Shown: positions 1 through 16,595 of the stretch, piece after piece
Numbering within the stretch: the stretch's first letter is position 1
How the letters are laid out: the number at the start of each line of letters is the position of its first letter
Virus record (IMG/VR): IMGVR_UViG_3300045988_078457
Location: 1-16,595 of that record
Direction: 5' to 3' (one strand)
DNA from: a virus
DNA: 16,595 nt
The notes under the pieces: model-generated
Databases searched by the model: none
Told to the model about the DNA's origin: nothing
The model's input: only the letters and a program-made list of their open reading frames with translations
Position numbers and translations under genes: made by a program

Positions 1-58
1 AATGTATTATCTTTGTAGTACAATAATAAACAAGTATTAACTTATAAATAATAAAATT

Positions 59-1030: not shown

Positions 1031-1259
1031 TATTGACGATTTACTTACTGAGTATGAAATAGACTATAGTATGTTTACAAATATGGATGATAGATTATTA
1101 AGTATATATCCAAAATGGCTTGAGCTTAATAAGGCAGATAAGACAGTAATCATATTATATGCTGAATATCGCAGTTATAGAGAAGTTGGAAGAATATTGG
1201 GAATTAGTCATACTACAATTCAAAGATTTATTAAACAAATAAGAGAGAGATTATGTTAG
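1014..1259 (+). CDS. Sigma-70 region-4-like helix-turn-helix protein (81 aa)
   Basis: ..VIILYAEYRSYREVGRILGISHTTIQRFIKQIRERL is a typical region-4 HTH. An in-frame TAA at 1011-1013 directly precedes the ATG, so there is no 5' extension. TAG stop at 1257-1259. Confidence 0.5.
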   Translation: MKRKINIDDLLTEYEIDYSMFTNMDDRLLSIYPKWLELNKADKTVIILYAEYRSYREVGRILGISHTTIQRFIKQIRERLC

Positions 1260-1582
1260 AATTATTTATAATAGCAATAATAATAGTCTTTATAATTGAT
1301 TTATCTGGCGCTTTAGATAGTTTTAAACATAGTATTTGAAAAAGACTATTTAAAGGTATGCCTTATAAAGAAGATTGAAGACTAAAACCTTTAGATTGCA
1401 GTTTATGTATGACTTGGTGAATTGGATTACTATATATTCTTATTACAAGTCAATTTTCAATTTTAATGGTTGGATATATTGCACTATTAGCATTTATGAC
1501 TCCAATTATTAAAGATATTATGATATTATTAAAAGATGCATCTACTAAACTAATAGATGTTATATACAAACTTATTAATTAA
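1253..1582 (+). CDS. Two-TM membrane protein (109 aa) with a CxxC-x-WW motif (DUF1360-like); three in-frame TGA
   Basis: Absent from the track. Hand translation gives MLELFIIAIIIVFIIDLSGALDSFKHSIWKRLFKGMPYKEDWRLKPLDCSLCMTWWIGLLYILITSQFSILMVGYIALLAFMTPIIKDIMILLKDASTKLIDVIYKLIN. TGA at 1337, 1376 and 1418; TAA stop at 1580-1582. The sequence has two clear hydrophobic helices. Confidence 0.6.
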
Positions 1583-1671
1583 AAATTATATTTTATGGAA
1601 ACAGAAATTATTTATCACTACAAGAATGGAAAGTTAATTTCTATATTTACTTATACTAAAAAGCGCTAATT

Positions 1672-2007
1672 ATGAAACAATTAACAGAAGAGCAGTTTAA
1701 ATATTTAAGAGGATTTGAAGATAGATTTGTAACTGCAACTAAGTCTAATTATTGCAGAAATGTACAAAAGCAGGATGTAATTAAACTTAAAGAGATTTAT
1801 GAATATTTAATTGAACAAGAATATAGAATGAGCGTAGCTTGTGCTACTTGTATACTTAATCTTATAAAGAGGATTGCCCCAATCTATTTTGAATATCAAG
1901 AAAAACTAAAGGAAAATGAAAGTAAAGAATCAAGAACTGCCGAAGAAAACAGGGAGACCAAGAAAGGAAGAGGTAAAAGAGAATCAAATAGACGAACAAA
2001 AAACTAA
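1672..2007 (+). CDS. Hypothetical protein (111 aa) upstream of the terminase genes
   Basis: Track ORF with a TAA stop. The Lys/Glu/Arg-rich tail (from about 1916) overlaps the terS candidate in another frame, so the true 3' portion is uncertain. Confidence 0.4.
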   Translation: MKQLTEEQFKYLRGFEDRFVTATKSNYCRNVQKQDVIKLKEIYEYLIEQEYRMSVACATCILNLIKRIAPIYFEYQEKLKENESKESRTAEENRETKKGRGKRESNRRTKN

Positions 2008-2368
2008 ATATCTTTATGCAGCAAGATTATTTAATAAAGGATGATCTAGAAATAAAGTAAGCGAAGAACTTCAAACTAAATATGGAGTTGGGCAAACTAC
2101 TGCTGCTAAATATATTAGAGAAGCTTATAAGATTATTGCAGATAAAAACGATAATCTTATAAAGAATTTAAGACATATACAATTAACAAGATTGGAAACA
2201 TTGTTGGATATTGCTATTAGTAAAAATGATGTAAGATCTGCTACTGAGGTTATTAAAACAATAAATTCTATGTTTGGATTAAATCAACCAGAAATTCAAG
2301 TTAATATTCAAAATAATGAATGCCAATTTAAATTTGGAGATCCCATTATAAATGACAAGGATATATAA
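1916..2368 (+). CDS. terS: Terminase small subunit candidate (150 aa); one in-frame TGA
   Basis: ATG at 1916 is preceded by an in-frame TAA at 1907-1909. TGA at 2042-2044 reads ..FNKGWSRNK... A basic GRPRK N-terminus is followed by the HTH-like VSEELQTKYGVGQTTAAKYIREAY. It ends at TAA 2366-2368 and overlaps the terL start by 17 nt, the classic position 5' of terL. Confidence 0.55.
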
Positions 2369-3599
2369 AGGATATAGGCCATTTATGTACCAATATAAGG
2401 TTCATATAGCTATGGCAGATGCTTATAGATCTGGAAGGATATTTACAATTAAAGCTAAACGACAAGTAGGTAAATCTTTCTTAGCTGAAAATGAATTATT
2501 ACGATTTGCAATTAACTATCCAAAAACAGTCAATTGTATAGTAGAACCTACTCTTGGGCAATCAAGAAAAGTGTTTAAAGAAATAGTTAATGCTATAGCT
2601 GAAGCAGATATTCTTAAACGTAAGAATGAAACTTTGCTTGAATTAGAGTTTAATAATGGCAGTTCTATATTATTTAGATCTGGAGAACAAATGGATTCGT
2701 TACGAGGATTCTCTGTAAGTGGATTACTTGTATTAGATGAGGCTGCTTACTTAAAAGATGAAGTATTTGAAATTATTAAACCTACTACTGATGTGTGGTC
2801 TGCTCCAATATTAATTATTAGTACTCCAAGGTTCCGAGAGGGTTTCTTTTATGACTGCTTTACTAAAGGGTTAGATCCGAAATATGACAAGTTCTATAAA
2901 TCATTTGATTGAGCTTTAGAAGATACATCTATGCTTTTAGATAAAGAGAAGTTAGAGATGTATCGACTTACAACCTCAAAAAATAAATTTAGAACCGAAT
3001 ATTTAGGGGAATTTGCAGATGATGATGGATGTTTATTTAATAATATAGCTAATTGCATAATTGAGAAAAAACCAGATTATCAGAGTCTTTATATAGGAAT
3101 AGACTGGGCTACTGGAAGTGGTAAAGACTATACTTGTGTTACTGCTTTAAATGAATCTGGGCAAATGGTCTTTATAAAGTATTTTAACGATAAAACTCCA
3201 ACAGAGCAAGTTGATTTATTAACAAATATACTAACTGAGTATCAAGGATTTATAAAGATTGTACAAGTTGAACAAAACTCAATTGGTAGTGTCTTCTATG
3301 ATATGTTAGTTCGGAAGAATCCGAAAATCAGGATTATACGATTCTTAACTACTAATAAGAGTAAGGCAGATATAGTTAATAAGCTTCAAGCTGCTTTGGA
3401 GAATGAAAAGATAGGATTATTAAAAGATGATAAACTTTTAAATGAGTTAAGACTATATGAAGCTTCATATAATCCAAAAACTGGAAATATTAGTTATAAT
3501 GCTCCATCTGGATTTAATGATGATACAGTAATTTCATTAATGCTAGCCTATGACTCATTAAATACAAACAAAGGACATTATAATATTAAAATTAAATAG
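2352..3599 (+). CDS. terL: Terminase large subunit (415 aa); one in-frame TGA
   Basis: Track ORFs 2352..2912 and 2931..3599 share a frame and are joined through TGA 2910-2912 (..KSFDWALEDTSM..). Walker A-like AKRQVGKS, Walker B LLVLDEAAY, and nuclease-domain acidic motifs IGIDWATGSGKDYT and FNDDTVISLMLAY. TAG stop at 3597-3599. Confidence 0.9.
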
Positions 3600-3600
3600 T

Positions 3601-4260
3601 ATGAATGTAGCAACTAAATGGGAAGAAGTATCTTTAAAGAAATTTCAAGCTTTAAATGCATTTATTATGAGTGATGCAAAAATGACAGATTTAGATAGGA
3701 GTATTGAGATCTATGCATTACTTACAGATAACCCAGATGAAGCAAGGGATTCTTTATTAAATATGACTGTAGATCAATTATCTGCAGAACTTAGTAAAAT
3801 TCATTTTATTGTAAATAAATATAAATCTAAAGTTCCAGAAACTGAGTATGATATTGATGGTAATAAATATACAGTTCAATTAAATCTCAGAAATATGACT
3901 GCTGCTCAGTATATTGATTTTCAGAACTTTTATAAAGATTATGAAAAGAATCAGAAGTATATATTTTTATGCTTTTTAATTCCTAAAGGAAAGAAGTATA
4001 ATGAGGGCTATGATGTAATGGAATTAGCAGATGAATTATATGATAAAATTCCAATTACTATTGTTACAGATATTATGGTTTTTTTTTGCAAATTATTAGA
4101 GAGCTTAACCATAGCTACCCTAATCTCTTCAATGCGGGAGATGAAGAAATTGATGAAAAAGGAGAAAGATCCAGTAAAGAAATATCAATTACGGAAGAGG
4201 ATAGTTCAAGCGAGACAAACTCTGAATTTAGTCAAAAATGGAACTGGATTTGTTGAATAG
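3601..4260 (+). CDS. Tail assembly chaperone, G-like product (219 aa)
   Basis: Track ORF. The N-terminus KWEEVSLKKFQALNAFI.. and the NMTAAQYIDFQNF segment resemble phage TAC families. A -1 frame stays open across its 3' end. TAG stop at 4258-4260. Confidence 0.5.
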   Translation: MNVATKWEEVSLKKFQALNAFIMSDAKMTDLDRSIEIYALLTDNPDEARDSLLNMTVDQLSAELSKIHFIVNKYKSKVPETEYDIDGNKYTVQLNLRNMTAAQYIDFQNFYKDYEKNQKYIFLCFLIPKGKKYNEGYDVMELADELYDKIPITIVTDIMVFFCKLLESLTIATLISSMREMKKLMKKEKDPVKKYQLRKRIVQARQTLNLVKNGTGFVE

Positions 4261-4403
4261 ACAGAGTTAGTGAAGTAACAAGGTTAAACTGGCATCAAGT
4301 ATACGATATGCAAATTCAAGAGTTCTTGAATATTATTTGCTACTTACTTGATAAAGGAAAGGAAGAAAAAAGACAAATAGATCTTTGAAAAGCTAAACAC
4401 TAA
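3601..4403 (+). CDS. Putative -1 frameshift (GT-like) product of the tail assembly chaperone, about 267 aa
   Basis: The -1 frame is open from 4047 to TAA 4401-4403 if TGA 4254 and 4386 are read as Trp. It encodes an acidic linker plus ..SQKWNWICWIDRVSEVTRLNWHQVYDMQIQEFLNIICYLLDKGKEEKRQIDLWKAKH. Candidate slippery sites are a T9 run at 4079-4087 and G-AAA-AAG at 4155-4161. Confidence 0.45.
4079..4087 (+). promoter_or_regulatory. T9 homopolymer: candidate -1 ribosomal slippery site (T TTT TTT in the zero frame gtt ttt ttt tgc)
   Basis: The run of nine T lies inside the window where the 0 and -1 frames are both open (4047-4258). The alternative heptamer G AAA AAG is at 4155-4161. Confidence 0.35.
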
Positions 4404-4436
4404 AATGTCAGGTTTTATTTATTTTAACTACTAAAA

Positions 4437-4455
4437 GTGAGTAAAAAACTTGACA
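4437..4455 (+). promoter_or_regulatory. Conserved intergenic motif, copy 1 (GTGAGTAAAAAACTTGACA)
   Basis: Its last 18 nt are identical to 13456-13473. It matches 13359-13377 at GTGAGTAAAA and TGACA. It contains TTGACA, but no -10-like hexamer follows at 16-18 nt because the hairpin sits there. Confidence 0.5.
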
Positions 4456-4460
4456 CTTAA

Positions 4461-4489
4461 ATAGGGAGTAAATCTCCCTATTTGTGTTT
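4461..4489 (+). terminator. Rho-independent terminator-like hairpin
   Basis: ATAGGGAG (4461-4468), loop TAAAT, CTCCCTAT (4474-4481). The stem is extendable by two A-T pairs and is followed by TTGTGTTT. It lies downstream of the chaperone gene. Confidence 0.5.
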
Positions 4490-4525
4490 AGATACTCAAT
4501 ATGAGAATGATATATTTTAGTAAAA

Positions 4526-5005
4526 ATGGCAAATCAAGTTTTGGATTTTCCCAATTTAGAAGCTGTCTTAAAACAATATGGAGAACAATTACTTTCTATA
4601 TATAGACAGAAATTACTACAAACTGGTTCAGATGATACGGGAACTCTTGGTAATACACTTAATTATATAGTTGAAGATCAAGATGAAGTATATGAAGTTA
4701 GTTTGCAAATACAAGATTATTGGAAGTATGTTGAGGAAGGTAGAAGTGCGGGGAAATTTCCTCCTATTAGTGATATAAAAAGATGGATACAAACTAAACC
4801 TGTATTACCTCGTATATATAACGGATCACTTCCAACTATTGATCAATTAGTATATTTAATAGCAAGAAAGATTTCTAGAAGAGGAATTGAAGGCAAGCAT
4901 CTATTAGAGGAATCATTAACTGAATTAGATGCTTATATGTTATTAGATGATGCAATTACAAAAGATTTAGAAACACAAGTTGATAATGTATTTAAAAACT
5001 TTTAA
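4526..5005 (+). CDS. Virion morphogenesis / head-tail joining protein candidate (HK97 gp10-like), 159 aa
   Basis: Track ORF. YWKYVEEGRSAGKFPPISDIKRWIQTK resembles the gp10-like Y-x-x-x-V-E-x-G core. TAA stop at 5003-5005. The function call is weak. Confidence 0.45.
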   Translation: MANQVLDFPNLEAVLKQYGEQLLSIYRQKLLQTGSDDTGTLGNTLNYIVEDQDEVYEVSLQIQDYWKYVEEGRSAGKFPPISDIKRWIQTKPVLPRIYNGSLPTIDQLVYLIARKISRRGIEGKHLLEESLTELDAYMLLDDAITKDLETQVDNVFKNF

Positions 5006-5007
5006 AA

Positions 5008-7188
5008 ATGGCATTTATACCAAGTAAATTAGGAGTATATAACGCATCAAGGAGTTTTCCTGTTAAATGAAATAATCCTGGATGAGGAATTACTGGAGAA
5101 TATGATTATTGGACTTGGGGAGATGATTATACTGAAGAGGGTCCTTTAAATGTAACTATACAAGATCCAAGTACTTCTGGATGTACAATACAATTTTTAT
5201 CTCCCACAACAATAACTACTGATTCTTCTACTGTATTTCATTTTTATCCTAGAGGTCTTACTACTGCTTTATTAATGGAAGATTTACCAATTAATCTACA
5301 TAGTAAAGCTCCTGGATTCTATCCTGCTAATAGTAGTATTAATGTACCAAATACTGGTGGAGAATATACAGTAGAGTATATATTAAATAGATCAGATATT
5401 ATTAAATGAAATGCAGCAGTTGTTAATGCTACAGCTTTAGTTAATATGGAAGTTCTGGATTGGGATTCTTGCTCTATTAAGTTTAAATTCACAGTAAGAG
5501 CTAATACTCAATGAAATACAGATTTAACTGGAACTATCCAATTAGGAGCTTATTATGACACTAATAAGTTTATTAGTTATAGTTACGGCTTTAAAATTGA
5601 AAAAAGTAATACTCCAGAAGATTTAAAGTTAGTAGTAACTCCTTCATCTGGAACTTATGGAGCATCTGCTTTTGTTACTGAAGAATTCCATTTAAGTACA
5701 ACTAAAGCAGAAGAAACAATTACCTCATTTAATGTTACTTGTCCTCAAGCTAGTAATATTAAAAAGGATATTGTTGATAACTATTTTGTATTAACTGTTC
5801 CAGAGAATAAAACTACTAATAATTTGGAGTTTAGTGCAATGGTTACTGCAACAACTTCTGGGGGTTATAACCTTGAAGCTACAGTTCCAATTAAACAAGC
5901 TGTAACATCTTTAGTGATTCCTAATACTAATTATGAAGTAAGTTGAACTGCATCTACATTAAATATAATGGGTACAGGTTCAAATAACTTAGATGATGTT
6001 GTATTTAGTATTCCTGTAGGTTGGATTAGTGGTCAGAAGTTCTCTGTGAATCCTCAAGGTGTAGCAACTATTAGTTTGAATATTGCAGAAAATTCAGGTT
6101 TATCTTCTAGACAAGCAACTATTGGAGTATCTGTTATAAAGAATAGTTCAAGTATTATTAATTTATCTATTAATATTACACAATCTGTTAAATCAGATAT
6201 TTCTCAAATTTGGAAAGATTATGTTTGGGAAGAGGTGATTAGTTCAGATTTTATTGAATATCATCTAGATTATGCAGGAGATATGGTTTATGCTGGTAAA
6301 GCTTATAAATATCCAGAAACTGATAGAGTAGAGTTTTTATTAAATAATGTTGCTGAAAATTATCTATCTAATGGGATTATATTTAATACATCAAAAACAA
6401 TAGTATCACCAGAATATTTAAAACCATTTACATTAATAACTTCATCTGGAAATGAAAAGCCAATTACTTTTTTCAATGATTGGAGTTATAAAGATAGAGA
6501 TCTAACTAAAGGCACTATGTTAAGTGATCCTATTACTGGTTTAGTTGATCCAAGACAATATTTAGTAGCAAGTTGAATTTTACCAACTGGAACGGGAGTT
6601 GTTAATAGATTTTTTTATGTAGATGGAGCACAAACTGCTATGGATATTAGTTTAAATTCTGGAATTAATGGATATACATATACAGAAGATTTAAGCAATA
6701 AACTATGGCCTTGTGGGAGCTATTTAATAGTAGGATTTGTAGAAGACGGAAATATTAGTGATAGACAGATTAGATATGATATAGATACTACAGGTAAAGA
6801 TTATGTGTTATATTATACTAATTCAGCAGGTGGATGGGATTCATTACTTGTTGAGGGTAATGTTAAAAAGAATGATGAGATTAAATCTGAAACATATACT
6901 CGTAAGGTATTAAATACATCACAAGAGTTTGCAAGAAATAAGTATTTGAATACTATAACTTCAAGCTGGGTTCTTTATACTGGTTATTTAAATGATATTC
7001 AAGCTTCTAAGATGTTTAATTTAATTGAGAGTACCAAAGTATATTTGCATAATCTTAAAGATAATACTATCACTCCAGTATTGATTACAGATACAAATTG
7101 TGAATATAAAACTTATACTAATCAAGGTAAAAACAAGTTCTATTATACAATTAATGTAGAAGCTTCTCAAGATACTTATCGTAAATAA
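5008..7188 (+). CDS. Large tail/baseplate structural protein (726 aa): N-terminal Ig/BACON-like modules plus a C-terminal conserved tail-protein domain; six in-frame TGA
   Basis: ATG at 5008 shares a frame with track ORFs 5968..6576 and 6640..7188. Hand translation of 5008-5967 and 6577-6639 shows only TGA interruptions (5068, 5083, 5407, 5512, 5944, 6574). The BACON-like segment is ..EVSWTASTLNI..IPVGWISGQKFSVNPQGVATISLNIAENSGLSSRQATIGVS..INITQS. TAA stop at 7186-7188. Confidence 0.75.
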
Positions 7189-7190
7189 TT

Positions 7191-7670
7191 ATGGAAGTAT
7201 ATAAAGACATTAAAGGATATGAGGGACTTTACCAGATAAGTAATACTGGTAAAGTCTTCTCTATAAAAAACAATAAAGAACTGAAGAGTGGATATACTCC
7301 AGCTGGATATACAAAAGTTCAATTGTGAAAGAATAAGTCTGGCAAGTGATTCAATATTCATAGATTAGTTGCAGAAGCGTTTATTCCAAACGTAGAAAAC
7401 TTACCACAAGTAAATCATATAAATGAGATAAAGGAGGATAATAGGGTTGATAATTTAGAATGATGTACAGCTCAATATAATGTTACTTATGGAAATAGAT
7501 TAAATAATAATAAAAAACCTGTAATACAGGAAAGCTTAGATGGCACTTTTATAAAGAGATGAAATTCAATTGCTGATACTAAAAAATATGGGTTTGTTCC
7601 CCAAAATATAGGACAGTGTTGTATTGGTAATATTTCACAACATAAAGGATATATTTGAAAATATGCGTAA
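7191..7670 (+). CDS. Free-standing HNH homing endonuclease (NUMOD4 + HNH_3 type), 159 aa; five in-frame TGA and no TGG
   Basis: Hand translation gives [100 protein letters not shown] at 7326, 7347, 7461, 7560 and 7656. The last three sit at Trp positions that are conserved in this family. TAA stop at 7668-7670. Confidence 0.85.
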
Positions 7671-10600
7671 AAATATTAAATTATTTATTGCAGGAAAAGA
7701 AGTACATTGTTCTGAAGGCATATCATTACCAATGACTTATACTGTAGAAGATTTTCAGAATCCAACAATAGTAAAAAATTCATTCAGTAAGACTATAAGC
7801 ATTCCAGGAGACAAAAATAATAATAAGATTTTTGGAGAGATTTATAAGTTAGATAGATTTCTCCATATAAAAGAAGGTAATTTCTCTGGAGTATATTTTG
7901 ATCCTTCAAAACGAGTTGATTTTGGAATTTATAATAATGGCTATTTAGTTGAATCTGGATATATGCAATTAAATAGCATATCTATAAAACAAGCTGTCAT
8001 TACTTATAATATTACTTTATATGGAGGATTAGGAGATTTCTTCTATGGACTTAAATATAAAGAAGATGGTACTATTAGGACTCTTGCTGATTTACAATAC
8101 TTTGTAACTGATGAAGATGGGAATACACTTCCTGCTGATACTGAACTTAATTTTTATATTAACAAAGATTTTGTAAATACTTGTTTTGACTGAAGTAAAA
8201 CGAATGAAGGAAGTCAAATATATGATTATTTGACATTTATTCCAGCATATAATGGTTTATATGAAGATTTTGATAATGAAAGTTGTTTAATAAATACTAA
8301 TGAAAATAGTATATTTCCTACTAGTAAGACAGATTCAGGAGTTACATATACACCTTATAATGGATATGGATTAGCTAAATTAAATAGAGCATATACAGAA
8401 TGGGAGATGAGAGATCTTAGAAGTTATATGCAGAGACCAGCTTTAAAATTGAGTAAGTTAATTGAAACTATCTGTAGAAAAGAGAATTCTGGATATGATG
8501 TAGTATTTGATCCTTCATTTTTTAATTGAAATAATCCGTATTGAAGTAAATCCTTTGTAGCTTTACCTTTATTATCTAATCTAGTAAGTGACGAAGCAGA
8601 TGTAACAGAATCTGGCTTTTTAGTAGAAGATAGTAAATATAATTATCAGGTAGGTATAAATAAAGGAGAATCTACATCAAGTCCTTTAAAATTATCCATT
8701 ACATCACCTGATATTGTTTATGATTCTGGAATAATTGATTTAAGTGAGGCTGGATTTAGAAAAAGTCTTTCTACAACTTTTTATTTTAAGTTAAAGTTTA
8801 ATCGAACTGCAGGAAATGTTGGGGATAGATATTTTTTTGGATTTAGAAGATATTTTAGCTCCTCTGCTCCTCCTTTTTATTCAGCATATAGAGGGTATGC
8901 TGATGTTTGGCTAACAATTACTAATGAAGTAGATGATATTATTTATACTTCTGAAATACATAGATTTACAAATTCAGGAACCTACTCACATCCTATAGCT
9001 AATGGGGTTAATCATTTTGGTTATTTTCAAAATAATGTATTTTATGATACTTCTTCATTAACTAATGATTTTGTTATTAATATTACAGATTTTAAAATTC
9101 CAATTAATAAAATTAAAATTAAACTTAATGTTGTATGATCTACTGGAAATAGTGTTAGACCTACTGGATTATTAAGTGAAGTAATAGAAAGAGGAGAGGA
9201 TTACCAAGCTATTCCAAAAGGAGATCTTATAGTAGATCTTACTTCTCCCATTGAAATTACTACTTCTACAGAGGTACTTCAAAGTAATGCATTATTAACT
9301 AAAAAATTATTATTAAAAACAGAACAATCTCCTGCTGATTACTTATTGAGTTATGCAAAACTATTTGGGTTATATTTTACAAAAGATATTGATAGTAAAA
9401 CAATTAGAATATATACTAGAAATAATTTCTTTAAGAATATAATCTCTGATTGGAGTAAGAGAATAGATTATTCTAAAGATTTCAATGTAAATCCAATATT
9501 ATTTGATAAGAAGTGATATAGAATGAGTTCTGAAGGTCCAGAAACTTATTTTTATAAAAAATACAATAAGGAATATTCTATATTATATGGTCAACAAAGA
9601 TTAAATACTGGTTATAATTTTAATTCTGAAACAACTGAACTGTATAGTGATAATATATATGAAAATATAGTTTCTGCAAGATGGAGAAATAAATATTTTA
9701 GAAATTTTTACAATTCTTCTTCCCTTGTAGTTCCTGCATTTATGAATGATAATATTACCTATACATTATTTAATAATAGCACTACTGAACTTAAGACTAT
9801 AGATCAAGAGTTATACGGAGCTAATTTTATAGATCCCTCTAAAACCACAGAATGATATAAAATCGCAGGTAATGATATATTTGCCAAAAATGTATTTTTC
9901 TCAATTGATGGTAATGAGGAATCTTTAGAGGATATCTCTCAATCCCTAGTATTCTTTAACGGTAATGTTCCTTTAACTGATGTAAAAGGAAATGAAGTAA
10001 CATATTGAATTACAGATGATCTTACAGAAATGAACATATTAAATGATCAGGAAATGTGTTATATATCTACTAAAAGTGAGAAAGATATTAGTGGGAATAA
10101 AATTGCTATAAAGAGAACTGTATTACCTCAATTTACAAGGTATACCGTTTCGTCCTCTAATGTTACTGCTTCTTGAGATTTTGGATTACCACAAGAGATT
10201 TATATTGATGATATAACTTATAATATCGGAAGTACTATTTATAGTAGATTCTGAAGTGAATTTTATAATGATCAATTTGATGTTAATACTAAGAAAGTTA
10301 CTTGTTTTGTAAGATTGGATGATTTAGATGTTAAGTATGATTTACTTAGACAGTTCTATTATTTTGAAGATTCTTACTGGATACTTAATAAGATTGATGC
10401 TTATGATATTAATTCAGATTCTACAGTTAGATGCGAATTTATTAAAGTTCAAGATATTAATAGTTATTTAGCTGGAGTTCAAAATCTAGGTGAATATATA
10501 TCATTTGATGATTCAGATCCAGTTGTAGATTATAAAGCTGGAACTAAAAAGATTACAGTTACTTCTAATATTCCTTGGGAATTAGGATGATATAGTCCAA

Positions 10601-11022
10601 ATGAAATTGTAAGCGTTACACCTGAATCTGGGCAACCTGGAGAAACAGAATTAACAGTTACATATAATGAGAATACTACATATGACCAAAGGAGTTTCTA
10701 TTTTAGTCTTTATAAACAAGGAAGTATAAATGGCCCTCAATGTATGTTTACTCAAACTCCAGACCCAAATAAAGCTATTCTTATTACAGGAAAGCTTCAA
10801 ACTTCTACTGGAGGTATTCCTTCTGGCGTTAATCAGATTCTAACTGAAAATGATAATTTCTTAAATGTCACTTATATGAGAGATGATGGAAGTTATAGAA
10901 TATATGCTCAAAATGGAGTTCAGTTTAAATTTGAGGTGGCTGATGGACCAACAGGAACAGTTAAATATACAGAGAATTTAACACTAACAGAAGATACTGT
11001 TAAAAACGTAACTATAAACTAA
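7663..11022 (+). CDS. Very large tail-tip / receptor-binding-class structural protein (1119 aa) with a C-terminal BACON/Ig-like module; ten in-frame TGA
   Basis: Track ORFs 7624..8193, 8230..8529, 9523..9855, 10315..10590 and 10744..11022 all share one frame. I translated every gap by hand and found only TGA (8191, 8527, 8542, 9136, 9514, 9853, 10006, 10174, 10252, 10588). The likely start is ATG 7663 ([14 protein letters not shown]..). The BACON-like module is ITVTSNIPWELGWYSPNEIVSVTPESGQPGETELTVTYNENTTYDQRSFYFSL. TAA stop. Confidence 0.75.
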
Positions 11023-11023
11023 T

Positions 11024-13357
11024 ATGGCTGAAGAAATTAAAAAAGTAATTAGTGTAGATACTAAAACCAGTTCAAAGTCGATCAAGCAGCTACGAGAAGA
11101 AGTAGCTGGCTTGACGGCTGAACTTGAAGATCTTGAGATTGGTAGTACTGACTATACTAAAAAGCTTGAAGAACTTGTTAATGTTCAAAATAAGTTAGGT
11201 GTTGCTACAGAATCTATGCAAGGTAAAACTGTAAATGCAGTTAAGGCGTTTGACAGTATCAATCAAGTAGCAGGAGGTTTAGCTGGAGGAGTTTCAGCTG
11301 TTAGTGCAGCATTCACTTTATTTGGAAAAGATACAGAGAATCTTCAAAAAACTATGGTTAAATTGCAAGCAGCAATTGCCATAGTTCAGGGAATTGGAGG
11401 ATTAAAAGGTTTAGGTGAAGGTATTCTTAATGGAGTAAAATCATTTAAAGCCTTATCTGTGGCAATGGGTGGTGCTACAGCTGCAACTGGAGGATTATCT
11501 GTGGCAATGGGTGTGCTACGGTCTGCAATTATATCTACAGGAATTGGAGCTTTAGTTGTAGCTCTTGGTATGCTCGTAGATTTTGCAATTAAAGCAGCAT
11601 CAGGAATGGATGATTTAAAAATTAGTATTTCTGGTTTAAAAGATATAACTGATCAATGAGGAACAAGCTATGCCAGAACTAATACTGAAATTGCAGGATT
11701 GGAGAGACAAAGAGAGAGAGATTTAGCTGCTGGTAAAAAAAATGAAATACAAATTTGGAAAGATTATGCTGAAGCATTAGGAGATTTAGATGCTGAATTA
11801 TTTCAACAATTTGGTAGTGTAACTAAAGCATATTCTGATTCATTTACTAATATACTTAAAAGTAATAAATACTTCAAAAAAGAATTTAAGAAATCTGGAT
11901 ATGAAACTTGGGAAGATTATTCCGAAGCAATACAATGAGGATTAAAGAATAGTTCTAATGAAGTTGATTTCTTTTTAAGTAAGTTAAATGAGGATCAAAA
12001 AGCAGCTTATGATGAAGCTTCTGGTATTTATAATACATATCTTGAGAAGCGAAATGATTTAATGCAAAAATCTGCTGAAGCTTATGAAAAAGTTAAGTTA
12101 ATGGAGATTGCTGCAGAACGTAAGCAGAGAGAAGATGCTAAAGCCCAGTATCTAAAGAATATAGAAGATAGAAAGAAACATAATCAAGATCTGCTTAAAG
12201 TTATTAACGATTTCTATGAAGAAAATAGGAAACTTCTTTTAGATGATGAAGCAAGAGAACTTGATGAATTAAATAGAAACTACCAGAATCAATTAGATGC
12301 ACTTAAAGAAGCCTACAATCTCAAATTAATAACAGTTAAAGAATATAATGAGAGATTAAAGCAGGTAAATGATGCATATAATAAAGAGTGACTAGATAAT
12401 AATAATGAACGTTATAGGGAAGACTTAGAAAATAGATTGTCTGCATTACAAGAAATGCAGGATAGGGAATCTCAATTATTTGCAAATAAAGAGGCTGCAT
12501 TATCTGCAGGTAAATCTGGAAGTTATGAAACTAGAGTTCAACAATTTGGTTCAACTGATTTCTATCAATCTAGAGAAGATGTTCAAAGACAATATCAAGA
12601 TACATTAGCTTATAATGAACAGTTATATAATCTTACCAAAGATAGAATTACAAGAGAGAATGAATTGATGTCTCAACAGCAAGCTATCTTAGATGAGCAA
12701 TATAACAATAAGCTGATAACTGAACAAGAATATGCTAATCAATCTCAAGCAATCAAATTACAGCAAGAAGCTAATGATATAGCTTTATCAGAAGCAGCTA
12801 ATGCAAGAGAAGAAGCAGATCTTCAAGCATTTAAAGATAGACAAGCTAAAAAGCAACAGGCTATTCAAGCTACTATGAATGTAGCTTCTTCTTTAAGTGG
12901 AGCTTTAGCTAATGTATTTAAACAAGAAGCTAGTGATGACAAGAAGAGTGAGAAACAGAGGGAGAAATCATTTAAAGTTTATAAAGCATTAGCTACTACT
13001 CAAGCTATTATTGATACTATCAGTTCTGCCCAAGGTGCATATAAAGCTATGGTAGGTATTCCGATTGTAGGTCCTATCCTTGCTCCTATTGCTGCTGCTA
13101 CTGCTGTTATAGCTGGTATTGCTAATGTAAAAGCTATCCAGAATGAACAATTACCTTCATCTGGAGGTTCTGGAAGTGATGCAGGAACTACTGCTCCTGT
13201 TGCTTTAAATACTGCTCCTGTAGAATATACTCGAAACTTACTTGGCAATAAAGAGACTGATGAATTGAATCAACCTGTTAAATGTTATGTAGTTGAGAGT
13301 GATATTACTAACGCTCAAACTAAAGTTGCAGTTACAGAATCAAATGCAAGTTTCTAA
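11024..13357 (+). CDS. Tape measure protein candidate (777 aa); three in-frame TGA
   Basis: Track ORFs 11024..11659, 11699..11938, 12062..12391 and 12437..13357 share a frame and are joined through TGA 11657, 11936 and 12389. Long Glu/Lys/Gln-rich coiled-coil stretches are flanked by Gly/Ala-rich hydrophobic blocks (GGLAGGVSAVSAAFTLFG.., ..MVGIPIVGPILAPIAAATAVIAGIANV), which is typical of TMPs. An internal ejection protein is an alternative. TAA stop at 13355-13357. Confidence 0.65.
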
Positions 13358-13358
13358 A

Positions 13359-13377
13359 GTGAGTAAAATTTCTGACA
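13359..13377 (+). promoter_or_regulatory. Conserved intergenic motif, copy 2 (GTGAGTAAAATTTCTGACA)
   Basis: It starts 2 nt after the TMP stop codon. It shares (C)TAAAGTGAGTAAAA and TGACAC with copy 1 at identical spacing and is immediately followed by a long hairpin. Confidence 0.45.
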
Positions 13378-13421
13378 CACTACTATGTAAGTTGCTGATT
13401 ATCAGTGCTTATATAGTAGTG
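13378..13421 (+). terminator. Long imperfect hairpin (about 19 bp including G-U pairs) after the tape-measure gene; terminator or RNA-processing/regulatory structure
   Basis: CACTACTATGTAAGT (13378-13392) pairs with GCTTATATAGTAGTG (13407-13421). An apical CTGA/TCAG stem (13395-13398 / 13402-13405) closes a TTA loop. Downstream is only moderately T-rich (caaaatttatttatctt). Confidence 0.4.
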
Positions 13422-13455
13422 CTATGTCAAAATTTATTTATCTTAGATACAAATT

Positions 13456-13496
13456 TGAGTAAAAAACTTGACATTTGATAGTATATAAATATATAA
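13456..13496 (+). promoter_or_regulatory. Conserved motif copy 3 plus a sigma-70-like promoter for the capsid operon
   Basis: TGAGTAAAAAACTTGACA (13456-13473) gives an A-tract plus TTGACA (13468-13473). TATATA / ATATAA follows at a 16-17 nt spacing (13490-13496). It lies about 60 nt upstream of ATG 13553. Confidence 0.5.
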
Positions 13497-13552
13497 AAAT
13501 AAAAGATTGTAACAATATTACATTTTTAAAATAGCTTATATATTAATAAAAA

Positions 13553-14146
13553 ATGGAAAAAATGTATAATGATCTTCCATTATATCAAGCAATTATTGCT
13601 GATGATTGTGATGGAATAGAGTTCGTAGCATTGACCAGTAAACCTGCAACCCAAGTTAATTGGCTTGCTTTTGGGGAATCTCAGAAGTTCTCGATGGATG
13701 AAGAAAAACATATAGTTACTTCTTGTTTAATGGTATGTGATATACCTATATTTAGACGGGATAGTAAAAACGGAGAATATTATATTCAATATGATAAAGA
13801 AACTCTCCGTTTAATGGCTGAAAAAATGATGTATGATAAGAGAACTACTGATGTAAATATTGAACATTTGGAAGATTCGGTAATTCCTGGAATAATTCTT
13901 CAAGAGCTATATATTAAAGATATAGATAGAGGAATTAATCCAGTTGAATTTGCTGATTGTCCAGATGGTTCATTATTTGCTACTTATAAAGTGAATAATC
14001 CTGTTATATGGGATGCAATTAAAGCTGGCAAGTTTAAAGGATTCTCTATTGAGGGATTGTTTACTTTAGAAAGACAATCTGATGAATATGAGGAACTTAA
14101 AGAGATTCAAAAAATGTTGAGAAAAATAAAAAGAGTTAAACATTAA
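13553..14146 (+). CDS. XkdF-like putative prohead serine protease / scaffold-associated domain protein (197 aa)
   Basis: Track ORF. ..EKHIVTSCLMVCDIPIFRRDSKNGEYYIQYDKETLRLMAEKMM.. and ..YKVNNPVIWDAIKAGKFKGFSIEGLF match my recollection of the XkdF (Peptidase_S78_2) pattern. It sits directly 5' of the scaffold and capsid genes. Confidence 0.55.
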   Translation: MEKMYNDLPLYQAIIADDCDGIEFVALTSKPATQVNWLAFGESQKFSMDEEKHIVTSCLMVCDIPIFRRDSKNGEYYIQYDKETLRLMAEKMMYDKRTTDVNIEHLEDSVIPGIILQELYIKDIDRGINPVEFADCPDGSLFATYKVNNPVIWDAIKAGKFKGFSIEGLFTLERQSDEYEELKEIQKMLRKIKRVKH

Positions 14147-14152
14147 TTAATT

Positions 14153-14758
14153 ATGAGTAAATTCACAAAAATTAAACTTGAGTTAGCTAAGATGCTTGCA
14201 AAGTTCAGTGATGTTAAAACTGACAAGGCTGTGCTTACTTGGGATTCAGATGAGGATCTGAGAGAAGGTATGGATGTTTATGTAGCTGATGAAAATGGCG
14301 AATATGCACCTGCTGCTGATGGTGAGTATGTTACCGAAGATGGCAAAACGATTGTTGTTAAAGACGGTAAAGTAGAGTCCATTACTGATCCTAAAGCTGA
14401 AGTTGATCCAGAAGAGGGTATGAGAACTGTTGAGGTTGATGCTGCTTGTGGAACTAAGAGAGTAAAAGCTGAGGAAGTTGCTGATCCTGCTGTTGAAACA
14501 GACGGTGTTAAAGAAACTGAGACTGATGCAATCGACGCTATTCATCGCGAAATTAATGAGCTTTACGATATTGTAGATAAGCTTGTTAAGAAAGTAGCAG
14601 AACTTGAAGGAAAATCAGAAGCTACTGAAAAGACTGTAGAAAAAATGAGTAAGATGAGTGCTGCTTTTTCAGCAGAGGAAACACTTGAAAATAAAACAAC
14701 TGCTCCTATAAGTGGGATAGCAGAAATAGATAGAAAGCTTAAAAACTTTATTGGTTAA
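14153..14758 (+). CDS. Scaffolding protein candidate (201 aa, acidic, helical C-terminus)
   Basis: Track ORF. It is highly acidic with a coiled-coil-like C-terminal half (REINELYDIVDKLVKKVAELEGKSEATEKTVEKM) and lies between the XkdF-like gene and the capsid gene. Confidence 0.55.
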   Translation: MSKFTKIKLELAKMLAKFSDVKTDKAVLTWDSDEDLREGMDVYVADENGEYAPAADGEYVTEDGKTIVVKDGKVESITDPKAEVDPEEGMRTVEVDAACGTKRVKAEEVADPAVETDGVKETETDAIDAIHREINELYDIVDKLVKKVAELEGKSEATEKTVEKMSKMSAAFSAEETLENKTTAPISGIAEIDRKLKNFIG

Positions 14759-14779
14759 TTTATAAAATTTTAAATAATT

Positions 14780-15679
14780 ATGGCAAATAGTCCTGTAATG
14801 ACAACGCTTCCTGCTTATGTGGAGCAAAGACGTCTCCCTCTTATTAAGGAAGCTGTTTTAAAAGCTAAGAGTGCAAGTTTGTTCAATCTTCAGACAGATA
14901 TTAAAACTGATGCTGCTCTTAACCTGTTATCTACCGATATTCAGTTCGGTGATGGTCTTACTTGTGGTTGGGATGAGGCTGGAACTCAGACTCTTTCGCA
15001 GAGAATTCTTAAGACTGGTAATATTAAGATTAATATGGCATATTGCGATAAGGCTATGCTGAAATACTGGACTCAGTATGCAGTTAAGGTAGCCGCTGGT
15101 CAGAAGACGCTTCCTTTTGAAGAGGATTTCGTAAATGCTGTTGTAGAGAATGTAAAAGAGGCTATTGAGGTAGCTATCTGGCAGGGTGATACGACTTCAG
15201 ATACTAATAACTTAAAGTATTTTGATGGTCTGCTTAAGATTCTTGCTGCTGATGCTGGTACTGTAGAAATTGCTGGAGCATCTGCTTATACTGACATTAT
15301 GGCAGTTTATAATGCAATTCCTGAGAAGGTTCTTGATGGTGCTTCTATTCTTGTTGGTGCTGATATGTTCCGTAAGTTCGTAAATGAACTTGTTGAGAAG
15401 AACTATTTCCACTATAGCGGAGAGAGCCTTGATGGTGAGATTTATCTTCCTGGTTCACAGGTTAAGGTTATTGCTGTTAATGGTCTTAATGGAACTGGTA
15501 AGATTGTTGCTGGTCAGTTAGACAAGAACTTCTTCTATGGTGTAGATATGATGAACGACGAAGAGAAATTCGAATTGTGGTATTCACAGGATTTCCGCGA
15601 GTTCAGATTAGCTATTGAATTTAACGCTGGTGTACAAGTTGCTTTCCCTAACGAAGTAGTATTAGGTGCCAAGGCTTAA
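14780..15679 (+). CDS. Major capsid protein candidate (299 aa)
   Basis: Track ORF. The call rests on position after the protease/scaffold genes, its size, and strongly biased codons (T-ending GGT/GCT/CTT/GTT) with locally higher G+C, consistent with the most highly expressed gene. Confidence 0.7.
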   Translation: MANSPVMTTLPAYVEQRRLPLIKEAVLKAKSASLFNLQTDIKTDAALNLLSTDIQFGDGLTCGWDEAGTQTLSQRILKTGNIKINMAYCDKAMLKYWTQYAVKVAAGQKTLPFEEDFVNAVVENVKEAIEVAIWQGDTTSDTNNLKYFDGLLKILAADAGTVEIAGASAYTDIMAVYNAIPEKVLDGASILVGADMFRKFVNELVEKNYFHYSGESLDGEIYLPGSQVKVIAVNGLNGTGKIVAGQLDKNFFYGVDMMNDEEKFELWYSQDFREFRLAIEFNAGVQVAFPNEVVLGAKA

Positions 15680-15719
15680 TTTCAATAGATTTTATTAACT
15701 TCTAAATGATATTGAAATT

Positions 15720-16244
15720 ATGGCTTGTTTAATAACTATCGCAGGAATCACACTTGATTGCCAACCTTCGTTAGGTGGTATCAAACAGGTTTGGATTACC
15801 CAGTATGCAGATGTTAAAAGTGTAACGGTTGATCCTGAGAGCAATATGATTTCAGCTATTACTCTTGAGTCTTCAGCTAAATGGTATAACTACCAATTTA
15901 GAAAGGCTACTGGTTCTCTAACCTCAACTTTAAATGTAGATGAAAGTGCTGGTGTTAATTATGTAAGTAATGAGCTTGCTCTTGTATTTACAAAGATGGA
16001 AACAGCAAAACGAGTAGAGATTGCAGCTTTATCTATTGGACAGCTTGCAGTTGTTGTTGAAGATAGCAATGGTAAGTATTGGTTCTTAGGTAAAGATGAT
16101 TATGTAAGCGCTTCCGCTGGTACGGGTGTTACTGGTACTGCTAAAGGTGATCAGAATGCTTATACTCTGACACTTTCAACAGATTCAGATTCTTATCCTT
16201 ATGAGTTATCTGCAGAAGCTATCCAAAGCGTTGTAGGTGCTTAA
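15720..16244 (+). CDS. Major tail (tube) protein candidate (174 aa)
   Basis: Track ORF. The pattern GGIKQVWIT..AKWYNYQFRKATGSLTS..ELALVFTKME..RVEIAAL..LAVVVEDSNGKYWFLGKD..GTGVTGTAKGDQNAYTLTL resembles siphovirus tail-tube families. It shares the capsid operon's codon bias. A head-tail connector or decoration protein is not excluded. Confidence 0.4.
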   Translation: MACLITIAGITLDCQPSLGGIKQVWITQYADVKSVTVDPESNMISAITLESSAKWYNYQFRKATGSLTSTLNVDESAGVNYVSNELALVFTKMETAKRVEIAALSIGQLAVVVEDSNGKYWFLGKDDYVSASAGTGVTGTAKGDQNAYTLTLSTDSDSYPYELSAEAIQSVVGA

Positions 16245-16254
16245 TAACAGAAAG

Positions 16255-16292
16255 AGGGGCGAGTATTAATTTACTTGCCCCTTATTTTGTTT
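16255..16292 (+). terminator. Rho-independent terminator closing the capsid operon
   Basis: AGGGGCGAGTA (16255-16265), loop TTAATT, TACTTGCCCCT (16272-16282). The stem is 11 bp with one G-U pair and is followed by TATTTTGTTT. Confidence 0.8.
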
Positions 16293-16335
16293 ATATAACA
16301 CATAATGAATAATTTATATTTTATAGAAAAATAAT

Positions 16336-16595
16336 ATGGCAATAGTATTTATATCAGAACCAGTAGCTAAAAATACTACAACTAAAAATTTAGATTTAAT
16401 TAAAGCTGCTGAATGTAAGTTACAAGAGAAATCAGTGGAATATACTCAAAATGCAGAGTTTGAAGTACTGCCAGATGAGGGATATGATGGAATGTCTAAG
16501 GTAAATGTATCTGTTGATGTAGTAGTGCCTACAGTTCAAGCTTCCAAAGCAATTACAATTACTCAGAATGGACCAATAGAGATTCTTCCTGACTC
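16336..16595 (+). CDS. Structural protein, 5' fragment (runs off the window); tail-fibre-like N-terminal module
   Basis: ATG at 16336 is open to the window end: MAIVFISEPVAKNTTTKNLDLIKAAECKLQEKSVEYTQNAEFEVLPDEGYDGMSKVNVSVDVVVPTVQASKAITITQNGPIEILPD. The motif LQEK-x-V-x(4-8)-PD-x-GYDG(M/L)SKV-x-V recurs in phage fibre-like proteins as far as I recall. Confidence 0.5.
   Translation, partial: MAIVFISEPVAKNTTTKNLDLIKAAECKLQEKSVEYTQNAEFEVLPDEGYDGMSKVNVSVDVVVPTVQASKAITITQNGPIEILPD

Follow-up and report, generated by a model that had tools for sequence, protein, structure and literature searches.

Why does a phage that reads TGA as tryptophan have no TGA in its head genes? The question is raised by a human-gut phage with a genome of roughly 30 kb that uses code 4 (IMG/VR record IMGVR_UViG_3300045988_078457). 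We analysed positions 1 to 16,595 of this record, a stretch of 16,595 nucleotides that we call the window. An earlier note on this DNA pointed to four genes at 13553-16244 in which every tryptophan codon is TGG, and offered two readings of the pattern. Either TGA is costly to decode or can be decoded only at certain times, with a suppressor tRNA competing against RF2 in a standard-code host, and highly expressed genes purge it, or recombination brought in the head module from a standard-code phage. Here we recount the codons, place the operon among its relatives, and weigh these and other explanations.

Recoding of TGA in the window

Under code 11 the long genes of the window break up. With only TAA and TAG as stops, the window gives single plus-strand open reading frames of 726, 1132, 777 and 415 amino acids, and taking TGA as sense lifts the coding fraction of related loci from about 0.7 to about 1.0. 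TGA columns alternate with TGG among relatives, and they align with tryptophan, not glycine, in standard-code relatives. For example, tail gene column 328 holds 22 TGA and 8 TGG against tryptophan in 6 standard-code sequences, and column 726 holds 27 TGA and 2 TGG. The TGA share in the window is only about 50%, and A-ending codons fill about 72% of Lys/Glu/Gln sites. Older branches of the phage's family have no in-frame TGA. The clade is abundant in human gut data, with many sequenced variants and TGA-free sister lineages; a megablast search of the whole window against GenBank phages gave no match.

Organization of the TGA-free operon

The head block is one transcription unit made up of a candidate promoter, four genes and a strong terminator, all on the plus strand. 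Its products, a protease, a scaffold, the capsid protein and a probable tube protein, are the virion parts needed in the largest numbers. The intergenic region upstream (13358-13552) shows conserved blocks in 25 distinct relatives and contains the hexamer TTGACA (13468-13473) with AT-rich sequence after it that looks like a -10 element. Overall, the promoter scan yielded sites no more numerous than in shuffled sequence, so the operon promoter is one that we infer. The operon is closed by an intrinsic terminator at 16254-16283, with a 12-bp stem containing 6 G-C pairs, a 6-nt loop and a T-rich tail. Both borders agree with those drawn earlier. A 62-aa open reading frame at 13293-13481 was rejected as a gene, as it overlaps the end of the gene at 11024-13357, enters the intergenic region and has a low-complexity translation.

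The first gene (13553-14146, 197 aa, 0 TGA and 2 TGG) encodes an S78/XkdF-like prohead protease, which matches PF14550 Peptidase_S78_2 with 32.4 bits against a curated cutoff of 24 and also matches PHROG head maturation proteases. The second (14153-14758, 201 aa, 0 TGA and 1 TGG) encodes a probable scaffolding protein that is acidic and has a helical C-terminal part; family matches are weak, and the assignment comes from composition and from the position between the protease and capsid genes. The third (14780-15679, 299 aa, 0 TGA and 4 TGG) has the strongest codon bias in the window and encodes the probable major capsid protein. A 91%-identical protein in nr bears the name "Major capsid protein", and 7 of the 12 members of phrog_1623, a virion structural protein family, were matched (best E = 2.6e-10). 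A structure model of the capsid protein (pLDDT 39) was too poor for use. The fourth gene (15720-16244, 174 aa, 0 TGA and 3 TGG) probably encodes the major tail-tube protein, a tentative assignment based on an AlphaFold model with a mean pLDDT of 67. In the PDB, almost every top match of this model is a tail-tube or tube-like protein (SPP1, lambda gpV, 7-7-1 and Milano); E values start at 7.5e-3, probabilities are 0.96-0.98 and TM is about 0.36. Sequence searches of Pfam, NCBIfam and the PDB gave no match for the capsid or tube protein.

The TGA-containing genes used for comparison lie upstream on the same strand. They encode the large terminase (2352-3599, 1 TGA and 2 TGG; phrog_2, E = 1e-36), a tail protein of 726 aa (5008-7188, 6 TGA and 10 TGG), an HNH homing endonuclease (7191-7670, 5 TGA and 0 TGG; phrog_59, E = 1.6e-42), a large tail protein of about 1119 aa (7663-11022, 10 TGA and 6 TGG) and a tape-measure-like protein of 777 aa (11024-13357, 3 TGA and 2 TGG). 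An identical HNH gene in relative L145 has the Pfam domains NUMOD4 and HNH_3. The TGA columns of the large tail gene align with tryptophan of standard-code relatives. The tape-measure-like protein has weak similarity to PHROG tape measures and a coiled-coil, Gly/Ala-rich composition.

Tryptophan codons in the window

Our recount bears out the observation that all 10 tryptophan codons of the operon are TGG and none is TGA. In the rest of the window we count 33 TGA and 29 TGG, or 31 and 29 with trimmed gene starts; an earlier hand count gave about 32 each. Fisher's test of the block against the rest gives P = 0.0014-0.0017, in line with the probability of about 0.001 first quoted, but that figure overstates the case. 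The block was picked post hoc, and when the longest TGG run at any place in the window is tested by permutation, P is 0.051 for the window alone. Heterogeneity of TGA/TGG use among the genes of the window has P = 0.035. G-ending codons make up 0.43-0.58 of Lys/Glu/Gln codons in the block versus 0.21-0.28 elsewhere, which raises the expected TGG share to about 0.67 and so the probability of ten in ten to about 0.02. The operon also offers few independent sites, with only 9-10 tryptophan columns. The window alone is borderline, and TGA avoidance is convincing only once relatives are included.

TGA avoidance among relatives

None of the 69 close relatives (capsid protein at least 86% identical) has a TGA in the capsid gene. 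The earlier note had named capsid TGA at similar density in relatives as evidence against its pattern; TGA does occur in the capsid gene in three deeper relatives (L142, L187 and L190), each with one such codon, so any cost of TGA must be small. No TGA is found in the scaffold gene of 35 unique relatives, and one of the two tryptophan codons of the protease gene is TGA in 9 of 38 relatives, which form a subclade. When unique sequences are pooled across the clade, TGA/TGG counts are 0/148 for capsid, 0/24 for scaffold, 1/92 for tube (31 unique relatives) and 6/64 for protease. The TGA share is 0.31-0.41 in the tail genes, 0.43 in the terminase gene (44 TGA and 58 TGG), 0.45 in the tape-measure-like gene, 0.42-0.57 in lysis-region genes and 0.64-0.77 in homing endonuclease genes. 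It is highest, at 0.80-0.96, in tail fibre and accessory genes, and membrane genes are also TGA-rich.

Avoidance of TGA extends to deeper divergence. Across five deep recoded lineages the operon is depleted of TGA with a CMH odds ratio of 0.14 (P = 7e-5), and the deep lineages without the window give an odds ratio of 0.21 (P = 0.006). The tryptophan positions of the operon are TGG in standard-code relatives, which indicates that the operon resisted conversion and did not purge TGA. Other genes are TGA-poor as well: the portal gene (0.10), the two genes after it (0.11-0.15), w09 (0.10), and a helicase-like minus-strand gene with 1 TGA and 79 TGG in 17 unique sequences and no switches in 3 columns. 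Two genes, w04 (0.71) and the lysin gene (0.42), are TGA-rich despite a high G-ending share.

Codon switching and codon bias

Are tryptophan codons in the operon held back more than other synonymous sites? We compared TGA/TGG switches per column with A/G switches at Lys/Glu/Gln sites, counted by parsimony on gene trees; these counts take no account of recombination or of rate variation among sites. The tail genes switch about equally at both (1.81 vs 1.88), and tryptophan columns switch more in the terminase (2.67 vs 1.11) and portal (3.25 vs 1.56) genes. The capsid gene shows no tryptophan switch in 4 columns vs 0.98 per column at Lys/Glu/Gln, and the tube gene shows 0.33 vs 0.95. For the head genes pooled, 3 TGA/TGG switches are observed where about 9.9 are expected (Poisson P = 0.011). 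A general preference for G-ending codons was considered as the whole cause. It covers the capsid's four codons in the window (expected probability about 0.55) but leaves the switching deficit across relatives unaccounted for. In the tail genes, TGG exceeds the G-ending share of Lys/Glu/Gln, so the pattern may in part reflect an ancestor with only TGG whose codons have not all been converted.

The capsid gene bears the classic signature of translational selection. Its C-ending share of two-fold pyrimidine codons is 0.37 vs 0.08-0.12 in the tail genes, ATA makes up 0 of 17 isoleucine codons vs 37 of 90, the CGY:AGR ratio is 3:3 vs 1:32, and the G-ending share of Lys/Glu/Gln is 0.72 vs 0.25. T occupies 0.69 of its four-fold sites, in keeping with the T-ending dominance noted earlier. 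The bias is graded, strongest in capsid and then falling through tube and scaffold to protease, which is both the head gene with the weakest bias and the one with TGA in a subclade. Capsid genes of the TGA-free relatives L037 and L044 have the same GC rise and the same codon-bias signature, and the shift in GC and codon use therefore predates recoding.

Origin of the higher-GC head module

The head block has 36.3% GC vs 28.8% in the rest of the window, and the two 60-mers cited in the earlier note (15061-15120 and 9061-9120) do contain 28 and 7 G+C. The block is thus a higher-GC island as claimed, but it is not unique in its avoidance of TGA, given the portal gene, its two neighbours, w09 and the helicase-like gene. 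Was the module imported from a standard-code phage? Its raised GC could suggest so, and modules do recombine freely. In L016, L020, L024 and L026 the tail genes have 95-96% nucleotide identity and the head block only 81-82%, L040 shows the reverse, and L034 has a visible breakpoint shortly before the protease gene, within the intergenic region. Tail and head blocks thus do exchange, with a breakpoint seen at the upstream border, but all partners are recoded phages, and the rampant recombination of modules takes place among recoded genomes. The composition also fails to mark the block as foreign, because the TGA-free relatives share it: in L037 GC and third-position GC are 0.367 and 0.27 for capsid vs 0.25-0.27 and 0.15 for tail genes, and L044 is similar. 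All 69 loci with head alleles at least 86% identical in capsid protein are recoded, the nearest TGA-free capsid is 66% identical, and we found no standard-code phage with a capsid protein more than 67% identical in IMG/VR or metagenome contigs. Finally, it is within recoded genomes that the head alleles have moved apart, down to 81% nucleotide identity and with each Lys/Glu/Gln site changed between A and G about once. We therefore regard an import as very improbable.

Proposed selection scaled with expression and its rivals

What has kept TGA out of this operon? We think it probable that selection scaled with expression has preserved the ancestral TGG codons of the head and tube genes, with neither purge nor import. 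On the recoded branch, ancestral TGG would in most genes drift to TGA with about the same freedom as A/G changes at other synonymous sites, and in the capsid and tube genes this drift would be blocked by translational selection that grows with expression. The same selection would act against A-ending and rare codons (ATA, AGA, TTA and AAA/GAA/CAA) and in favour of C- and T-ending codons. TGA would be a slightly worse codon that matters only at very high expression. The codon counts, the bias signature that TGA-free relatives also carry, the suppressed switching and the replication in deeper lineages all argue for this explanation, and a tube protein, the probable product of the fourth gene, would be in its place in an operon for high-copy proteins. 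We infer expression level as the driver from protein roles and codon bias, and the cost of TGA would presumably lie in slower or leakier decoding. Against the explanation stand the low-copy portal, the two genes after it, w09 and the helicase-like gene, whose scarcity of TGA is in no case explained by abundance. The core of the reading that TGA is costly in highly expressed genes is thus supported, and the idea of a purge falls, as the TGG codons are ancestral.

Two other accounts invoke timing and history. The operon and the helicase-like gene might have to be translatable before TGA decoding sets in within the infected cell, or without it, and so stay in the standard code, with the tail, lysis, terminase and homing endonuclease genes gated by TGA. 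The plausibly early helicase-like gene, with 1 TGA in 80 tryptophan codons, matches a model of early genes in the standard code; the operon has its own candidate promoter and terminator; and membrane, lysis-region and homing endonuclease genes are TGA-rich, as Borges et al. found in Agate phages. We nevertheless hold a timing effect to be unlikely. Early expression of the operon would have to be assumed, no code-switch machinery that could be timed was found, relatives are viable with TGA in the protease gene (9 genomes) or the capsid gene (L142, L187 and L190), and an on/off gate accounts less well than quantitative selection for the graded pattern and the codon bias in general. History and chance offer a simpler account, in which TGG is ancestral, the few tryptophan sites of slowly evolving head genes have not yet been converted, and the run was noticed post hoc. 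The corrected P of 0.05 for the window alone, the TGG at every head tryptophan position in standard-code relatives, the surplus of TGG in tail genes over what their Lys/Glu/Gln G share predicts, and the shorter gene trees of head genes are all consistent with it. But in the same head genes and trees Lys/Glu/Gln sites switch about once per column vs 0.33 for tryptophan (P = 0.011), the depletion recurs in lineages with 67-70% capsid identity, a distance at which saturation of synonymous sites is expected, and ancestral tryptophan columns in tail genes did convert. This makes history alone quite unlikely.

A further account turns on assembly in place of abundance. If TGA were partly read as stop, truncated subunits of the capsid, scaffold, protease or portal would enter assemblies and spoil them, and head-assembly genes would avoid TGA whatever their copy number. 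This could explain the low TGA share of the low-copy portal and the two following genes (0.10-0.15), which abundance leaves unexplained, and the most TGA-rich genes are indeed those for tail fibres and accessory proteins. However, the frequent switching of portal tryptophan sites (3.25 per column) shows no strong exclusion of TGA from that gene, and the large multimeric tail proteins carry 6-10 TGA each. Such poisoning seems to us decidedly doubtful, and selection scaled with expression remains our preferred explanation.

Decoding of TGA and the host

How does the phage read TGA? ARAGORN detected no tRNA either in the window or in a set of 60 loci that jointly cover the genome, an Rfam search of a complete 30,120-bp relative found none even at E up to 1, and neither a tRNA, a release factor nor a synthetase that could switch the code was found in the phage genome. 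The suppressor tRNA that the earlier note set against RF2 is thus a conjecture with no counterpart in this genome. The phage genes are without Shine-Dalgarno leaders. Among representative bacterial genomes, all relatives found were distant (38-54% capsid identity) and sat on short contigs, most of them in Bacteroidales bins, which is a weak hint at the host. Two candidate host links were rejected: a 148-kb IMG/VR contig whose repeats at 29,846 bp spacing mark it as a chain of phage genomes with no host flanks, and a 193-kb ENA scaffold with only phage genes near the match, which looks like a chain of the same kind. A host tRNA-Trp may read TGA as a near-cognate codon after the phage disables or outcompetes RF2, and TGA would then act as a slow, leaky damper on expression; we consider this improbable. 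If it were true, the tail, lysis and homing endonuclease genes would exploit or tolerate TGA, the head and tube operon would be kept TGA-free for bulk production, and the TGA share of each gene would reflect its intended protein dosage.

Discussion

Our literature search turned up no account of recoded-stop avoidance by capsid genes, and no useful information on whether strongly expressed genes of code-4 bacteria prefer TGG. Our work suggests that even a recoded phage that is well adapted pays a measurable cost for the reassigned codon, and that recoding is adjusted for each gene separately instead of being imposed on a module as a whole. There is also a practical consequence, as the capsid genes of such phages are called correctly under the standard code and recoding can therefore escape marker-gene screens. 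With its many variants, its TGA-free sisters and its lack of a suppressor tRNA, the clade is a good system for studying TGA decoding.

Translational selection on codon usage in highly expressed genes is a general phenomenon of bacteria and phages. The capsid gene conforms to it, with a preference for C-ending two-fold and T-ending four-fold codons and avoidance of ATA, AGA, TTA and A-ending codons, and the choice of TGG over TGA runs in the same direction. Unlike in ordinary translational selection, the disfavoured codon here is a reassigned stop, and its cost may include competition with release factor besides tRNA abundance.

The phage resembles recoded gut phages (Borges et al., bioRxiv 10.1101/2021.08.26.457843; crAss-like phages, Yutin et al., PMC7886860) in several ways. 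In-frame TGA aligns with tryptophan, TGA is a rare stop codon in the close relatives, which are not recoded, and genes differ in their content of recoded codons. Homing endonuclease and membrane genes favour TGA, a probable early gene shuns it, and the genome size of about 30 kb resembles that of the small clades of Borges et al. A suppressor was reported in 35% of code-4 phages by Borges et al. and in 15% by Cook et al. (PMC11210395), so most code-4 phages are without a detectable one. Borges et al. report that recoding is concentrated in the genes for structure and lysis, with no mention of avoidance in capsid genes. Current accounts have recoded stops gate the late structural and lysis genes as a block. 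Here, in contrast, the most abundant structural genes avoid TGA and the main virion building blocks are exempt. The late head and tube operon is TGA-free, and the earlier note was fair in calling this a departure from the picture of recoded late genes.

A parallel for a gene family that shuns the recoded codon is the integrase genes of Garnet and Topaz prophages, whose avoidance of recoded stops Borges et al. read as a lysis-lysogeny switch for a gene that has to work under the host code. In both cases a specific gene family is free of the recoded codon and this is shown statistically across relatives. Unlike those integrases, the genes here specify virion components made late, and we saw no integrase. 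Mycoplasma and Spiroplasma phages, which share their host's code 4 (Cook et al., PMC11210395), also read TGA as tryptophan without a phage suppressor tRNA, and like them our phage uses TGA and TGG as near-neutral synonyms in most genes. It differs from them in its human-gut source, its genes without Shine-Dalgarno leaders and its distant relatives in Bacteroidales bins, and also in having TGA-free sister lineages and a TGA share (about 50%) below that of A-ending Lys/Glu/Gln codons (about 72%).

Gene content and genetic code of the window

Every real gene of the window is encoded on the + strand. The standard bacterial code breaks up the large genes, whereas translation with TAA and TAG as the only stops yields one uninterrupted ORF each, of 726, 1132, 777 and 415 aa. 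TGA encodes tryptophan rather than glycine: in codon alignments, TGA columns interchange with TGG and match Trp in TGA-free relatives. Small genes come first, followed by the small and large terminases (the latter at 2352-3599), two genes without an assigned identity, a tail protein of 726 aa, an HNH endonuclease (7191-7670; 5 TGA, 0 TGG), a large tail protein of ~1119 aa and a tape-measure-like protein of 777 aa. A 195-bp gap then precedes the four genes of the head operon, which is followed by a strong terminator (16254-16283). Comparison with homologs places the start of the large tail gene at the ATG at 7663 (MRKNIK...), so that its first 8 nt (7663-7670) overlap the HNH gene; the start chosen by the ORF finder, TTG at 7624, is probably wrong. 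We found the identical capsid protein on ~29 kb contigs from human gut metagenomes.

The first operon gene (13553-14146, +) encodes an S78/XkdF-type prohead protease, with a Pfam match that exceeds the cutoff. The second (14153-14758, +) is in the scaffold position and encodes an acidic protein, probably a scaffold, whose C-terminal part is helical. The third (14780-15679, +) probably encodes the major capsid protein: an nr protein with 91% identity carries that name, and of 12 members of its family, 7 hit a PHROG family of virion structural proteins (best E = 2.6e-10). Pfam, NCBIfam and PDB sequence searches with the capsid protein gave no match, and its structure model was unusable. For the fourth (15720-16244, +), the model was moderate (pLDDT 67) and the top PDB matches, although weak in score, were nearly all tail-tube or tube-like proteins, suggesting a probable tube protein. 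With these identities, the operon would encode the virion parts of highest copy.

TGA depletion of the head operon

The earlier note described the operon as free of TGA, and our counts bear this out: TGA/TGG is 0/2 in the protease gene, 0/1 in the scaffold gene, 0/4 in the capsid gene and 0/3 in the fourth gene, while the remainder of the window holds 33 TGA and 29 TGG (31/29 with trimmed gene starts). The G+C counts of its two 60-nucleotide samples, the TTGACA at 13468 and the terminator were also as described. Fisher's test on the contrast gives P = 0.0014-0.0017, but the original statistics were optimistic, the block having been chosen post hoc. When the longest uninterrupted TGG run across the whole window is tested by permutation, P is 0.051; for among-gene heterogeneity of TGA/TGG, P is 0.035. 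Moreover, the block is richer in G-ending Lys/Glu/Gln codons, a bias that by itself lifts the expected TGG share to roughly two thirds. The window on its own is no more than suggestive of TGA avoidance.

We therefore rely on relatives. A protein search returned 3,390 capsid homologs, and we compared 137 loci around capsid homologs from IMG/VR and metagenome scans, with extra loci obtained via terminase and portal scans. In 69 loci the capsid protein is at least 86% identical; every one of these loci is recoded, and each has 0 TGA and 4 TGG in its capsid gene. Pooled over unique sequences, TGA/TGG is 0/148 for capsid, 0/24 for scaffold, 1/92 for tube and 6/64 for protease genes. The pooled TGA share of Trp codons is 0.31-0.41 in tail genes, 0.43 in terminase, 0.45 in the tape-measure-like gene, 0.64-0.77 in homing endonucleases and 0.80-0.96 in two fibre-like families. 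With five deep recoded lineages as strata, head genes are TGA-depleted (odds ratio 0.14, P = 7e-5), and they remain so when the window is left out (odds ratio 0.21, P = 0.006). At capsid identities up to 63%, in-frame TGA is essentially absent from every relative. The depletion of the head operon is thus real and reproducible. It is not absolute: 9 of 38 relatives carry TGA at one of two protease Trp codons, and three deeper recoded relatives (L142, L187 and L190) have one capsid-gene TGA each.

The head operon is one of several TGA-poor regions. TGA share is 0.10 in the portal gene, 0.11-0.15 in the two genes after it and 0.10 in w09, the gene after the terminase; abundance does not account for TGA poverty in these genes. 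A helicase-like gene, the sole minus-strand gene of the genome (572 aa; 4682-6400, minus, in relative L058, with homologs in L085 and L136), has 1/80 TGA across the clade. The encoded protein matches no family; possibly this is an early gene that has stayed in the standard code. The opposite extreme from the capsid gene is found in the fibre-like families downstream of the operon (L002 12905-15118 and 17658-18647, with homologs), in which Trp is almost all TGA (26/1 and 72/18 pooled). Clade-wide, tail and terminase genes have a TGG share of 0.56-0.75, far exceeding the share of Lys/Glu/Gln codons that end in G (~0.30). This excess in TGA-tolerant genes reflects either incomplete conversion from an all-TGG ancestor or mild TGA disfavour everywhere.

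Some relatives carry a GIY-YIG endonuclease gene within the head operon, where it either separates the capsid gene from the tube gene or follows the protease gene (L149 9212-9979, L150 7273-7767, L151 5602-6369). The TGA-free operon is therefore a target of invasion by selfish genes rich in TGA.

Origin and maintenance of the TGG-only state

Why does the head operon lack TGA? The earlier note raised the possibility that the block is a foreign, higher-GC island acquired from a standard-code phage. Module recombination is indeed rampant: nucleotide identity is 95-96% in the tail genes and 81-82% in the head block of some relatives, and other relatives have the opposite pattern. A check for breakpoints at the operon border found one just upstream of the protease gene. 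Exchange breakpoints (window ~12500-13552; relatives L034, L040, L016 and L020) map close to the tape-measure-like gene's 3' end and to the gap that precedes the protease gene. However, every recombination partner is recoded, and the closest TGA-free capsid protein in the IMG/VR and metagenome searches is just 66% identical, so acquisition from a standard-code phage is not supported. Nor does composition mark the block as foreign. The capsid gene has C at 0.37 of two-fold codons versus ~0.1, lacks ATA, favours CGY over AGR and CTT over TTA, has T at 0.69 of four-fold sites and ends 0.72 of its Lys/Glu/Gln codons in G, a usage that reads as a textbook signature of translational selection. Two TGA-free relatives, L037 and L044, show this signature in their capsid genes too, along with the same GC rise relative to their own tail genes. 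The higher GC thus belongs to this gene as a family trait, which is older than recoding and stems from amino-acid content and codon bias.

Slow evolution could also leave TGG in place. We counted minimum switches per column on recoded-clade gene trees, comparing TGA/TGG with A/G at conserved Lys/Glu/Gln. In most genes, Trp switches match or exceed Lys/Glu/Gln switches (tail 1.81 vs 1.88, terminase 2.67 vs 1.11, portal 3.25 vs 1.56); the frequent switching at portal Trp sites indicates that TGA exclusion is weak there. The capsid gene shows 0 switches in 4 columns vs 0.98, and the tube gene 0.33 vs 0.95. Pooled head genes have 3 observed TGA/TGG switches where ~9.9 are expected (P = 0.011). This is moderate evidence, given the small numbers and because recombination is ignored, that head genes stayed unconverted despite opportunity to convert. 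We propose that expression-linked codon selection would act on this operon of high-copy virion proteins, which would have kept its ancestral TGG; higher GC and the TGG-only state most likely both reflect such selection.

TGA decoding and host

TGA makes up ~40-50% of Trp codons in the clade. ARAGORN found no tRNA in the window or in 60 loci that jointly span the genome, and an Rfam search of a complete relative (L061+L102; 30,120 bp) was equally negative at a permissive threshold. The suppressor tRNA competing with RF2 that the earlier note put forward would thus be a hypothetical decoding mechanism. No Shine-Dalgarno-like sequence was found in the 25 nt 5' of any window start codon; these leaders are simply rich in A and T, a feature shared with Bacteroidota and their phages. 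Contigs of distant relatives were binned mostly with Bacteroidales, and TGA is rarely a stop codon in the TGA-free relatives. From these points we lean toward a standard-code, Bacteroidota-like host.

In L037 (IMGVR_UViG_3300029905_000019; GC 28%, capsid identity 66%), the gene homologs examined have no in-frame TGA, and 0 of 18 long ORFs stop at TGA. TGA looks essentially unassigned there, and L037 is plausibly an intermediate en route to recoding. In the contig carrying L033, L085 and L136 (IMGVR_UViG_3300045988_175865; 148,631 bp, about five genome units), the last 2,256 bp are repeated exactly 29,846 bp upstream. Assembly chains or concatemers probably account for this contig, the 193-kb ENA scaffold of L149 and the 175-kb contig of L181, and the long phage contigs showed no flanking host sequence.

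Comparison with known recoded phages

The published idea of standard-code early genes fits the helicase-like gene here. Homing endonucleases and membrane proteins prefer TGA in this clade, as in another recoded clade in a published report. Our literature searches found no description of capsid genes avoiding a recoded stop. Published surveys of recoded phages do show that recoding is uneven among genes, with avoidance described for integrase, and avoidance by the capsid gene is a modest addition to this known unevenness.
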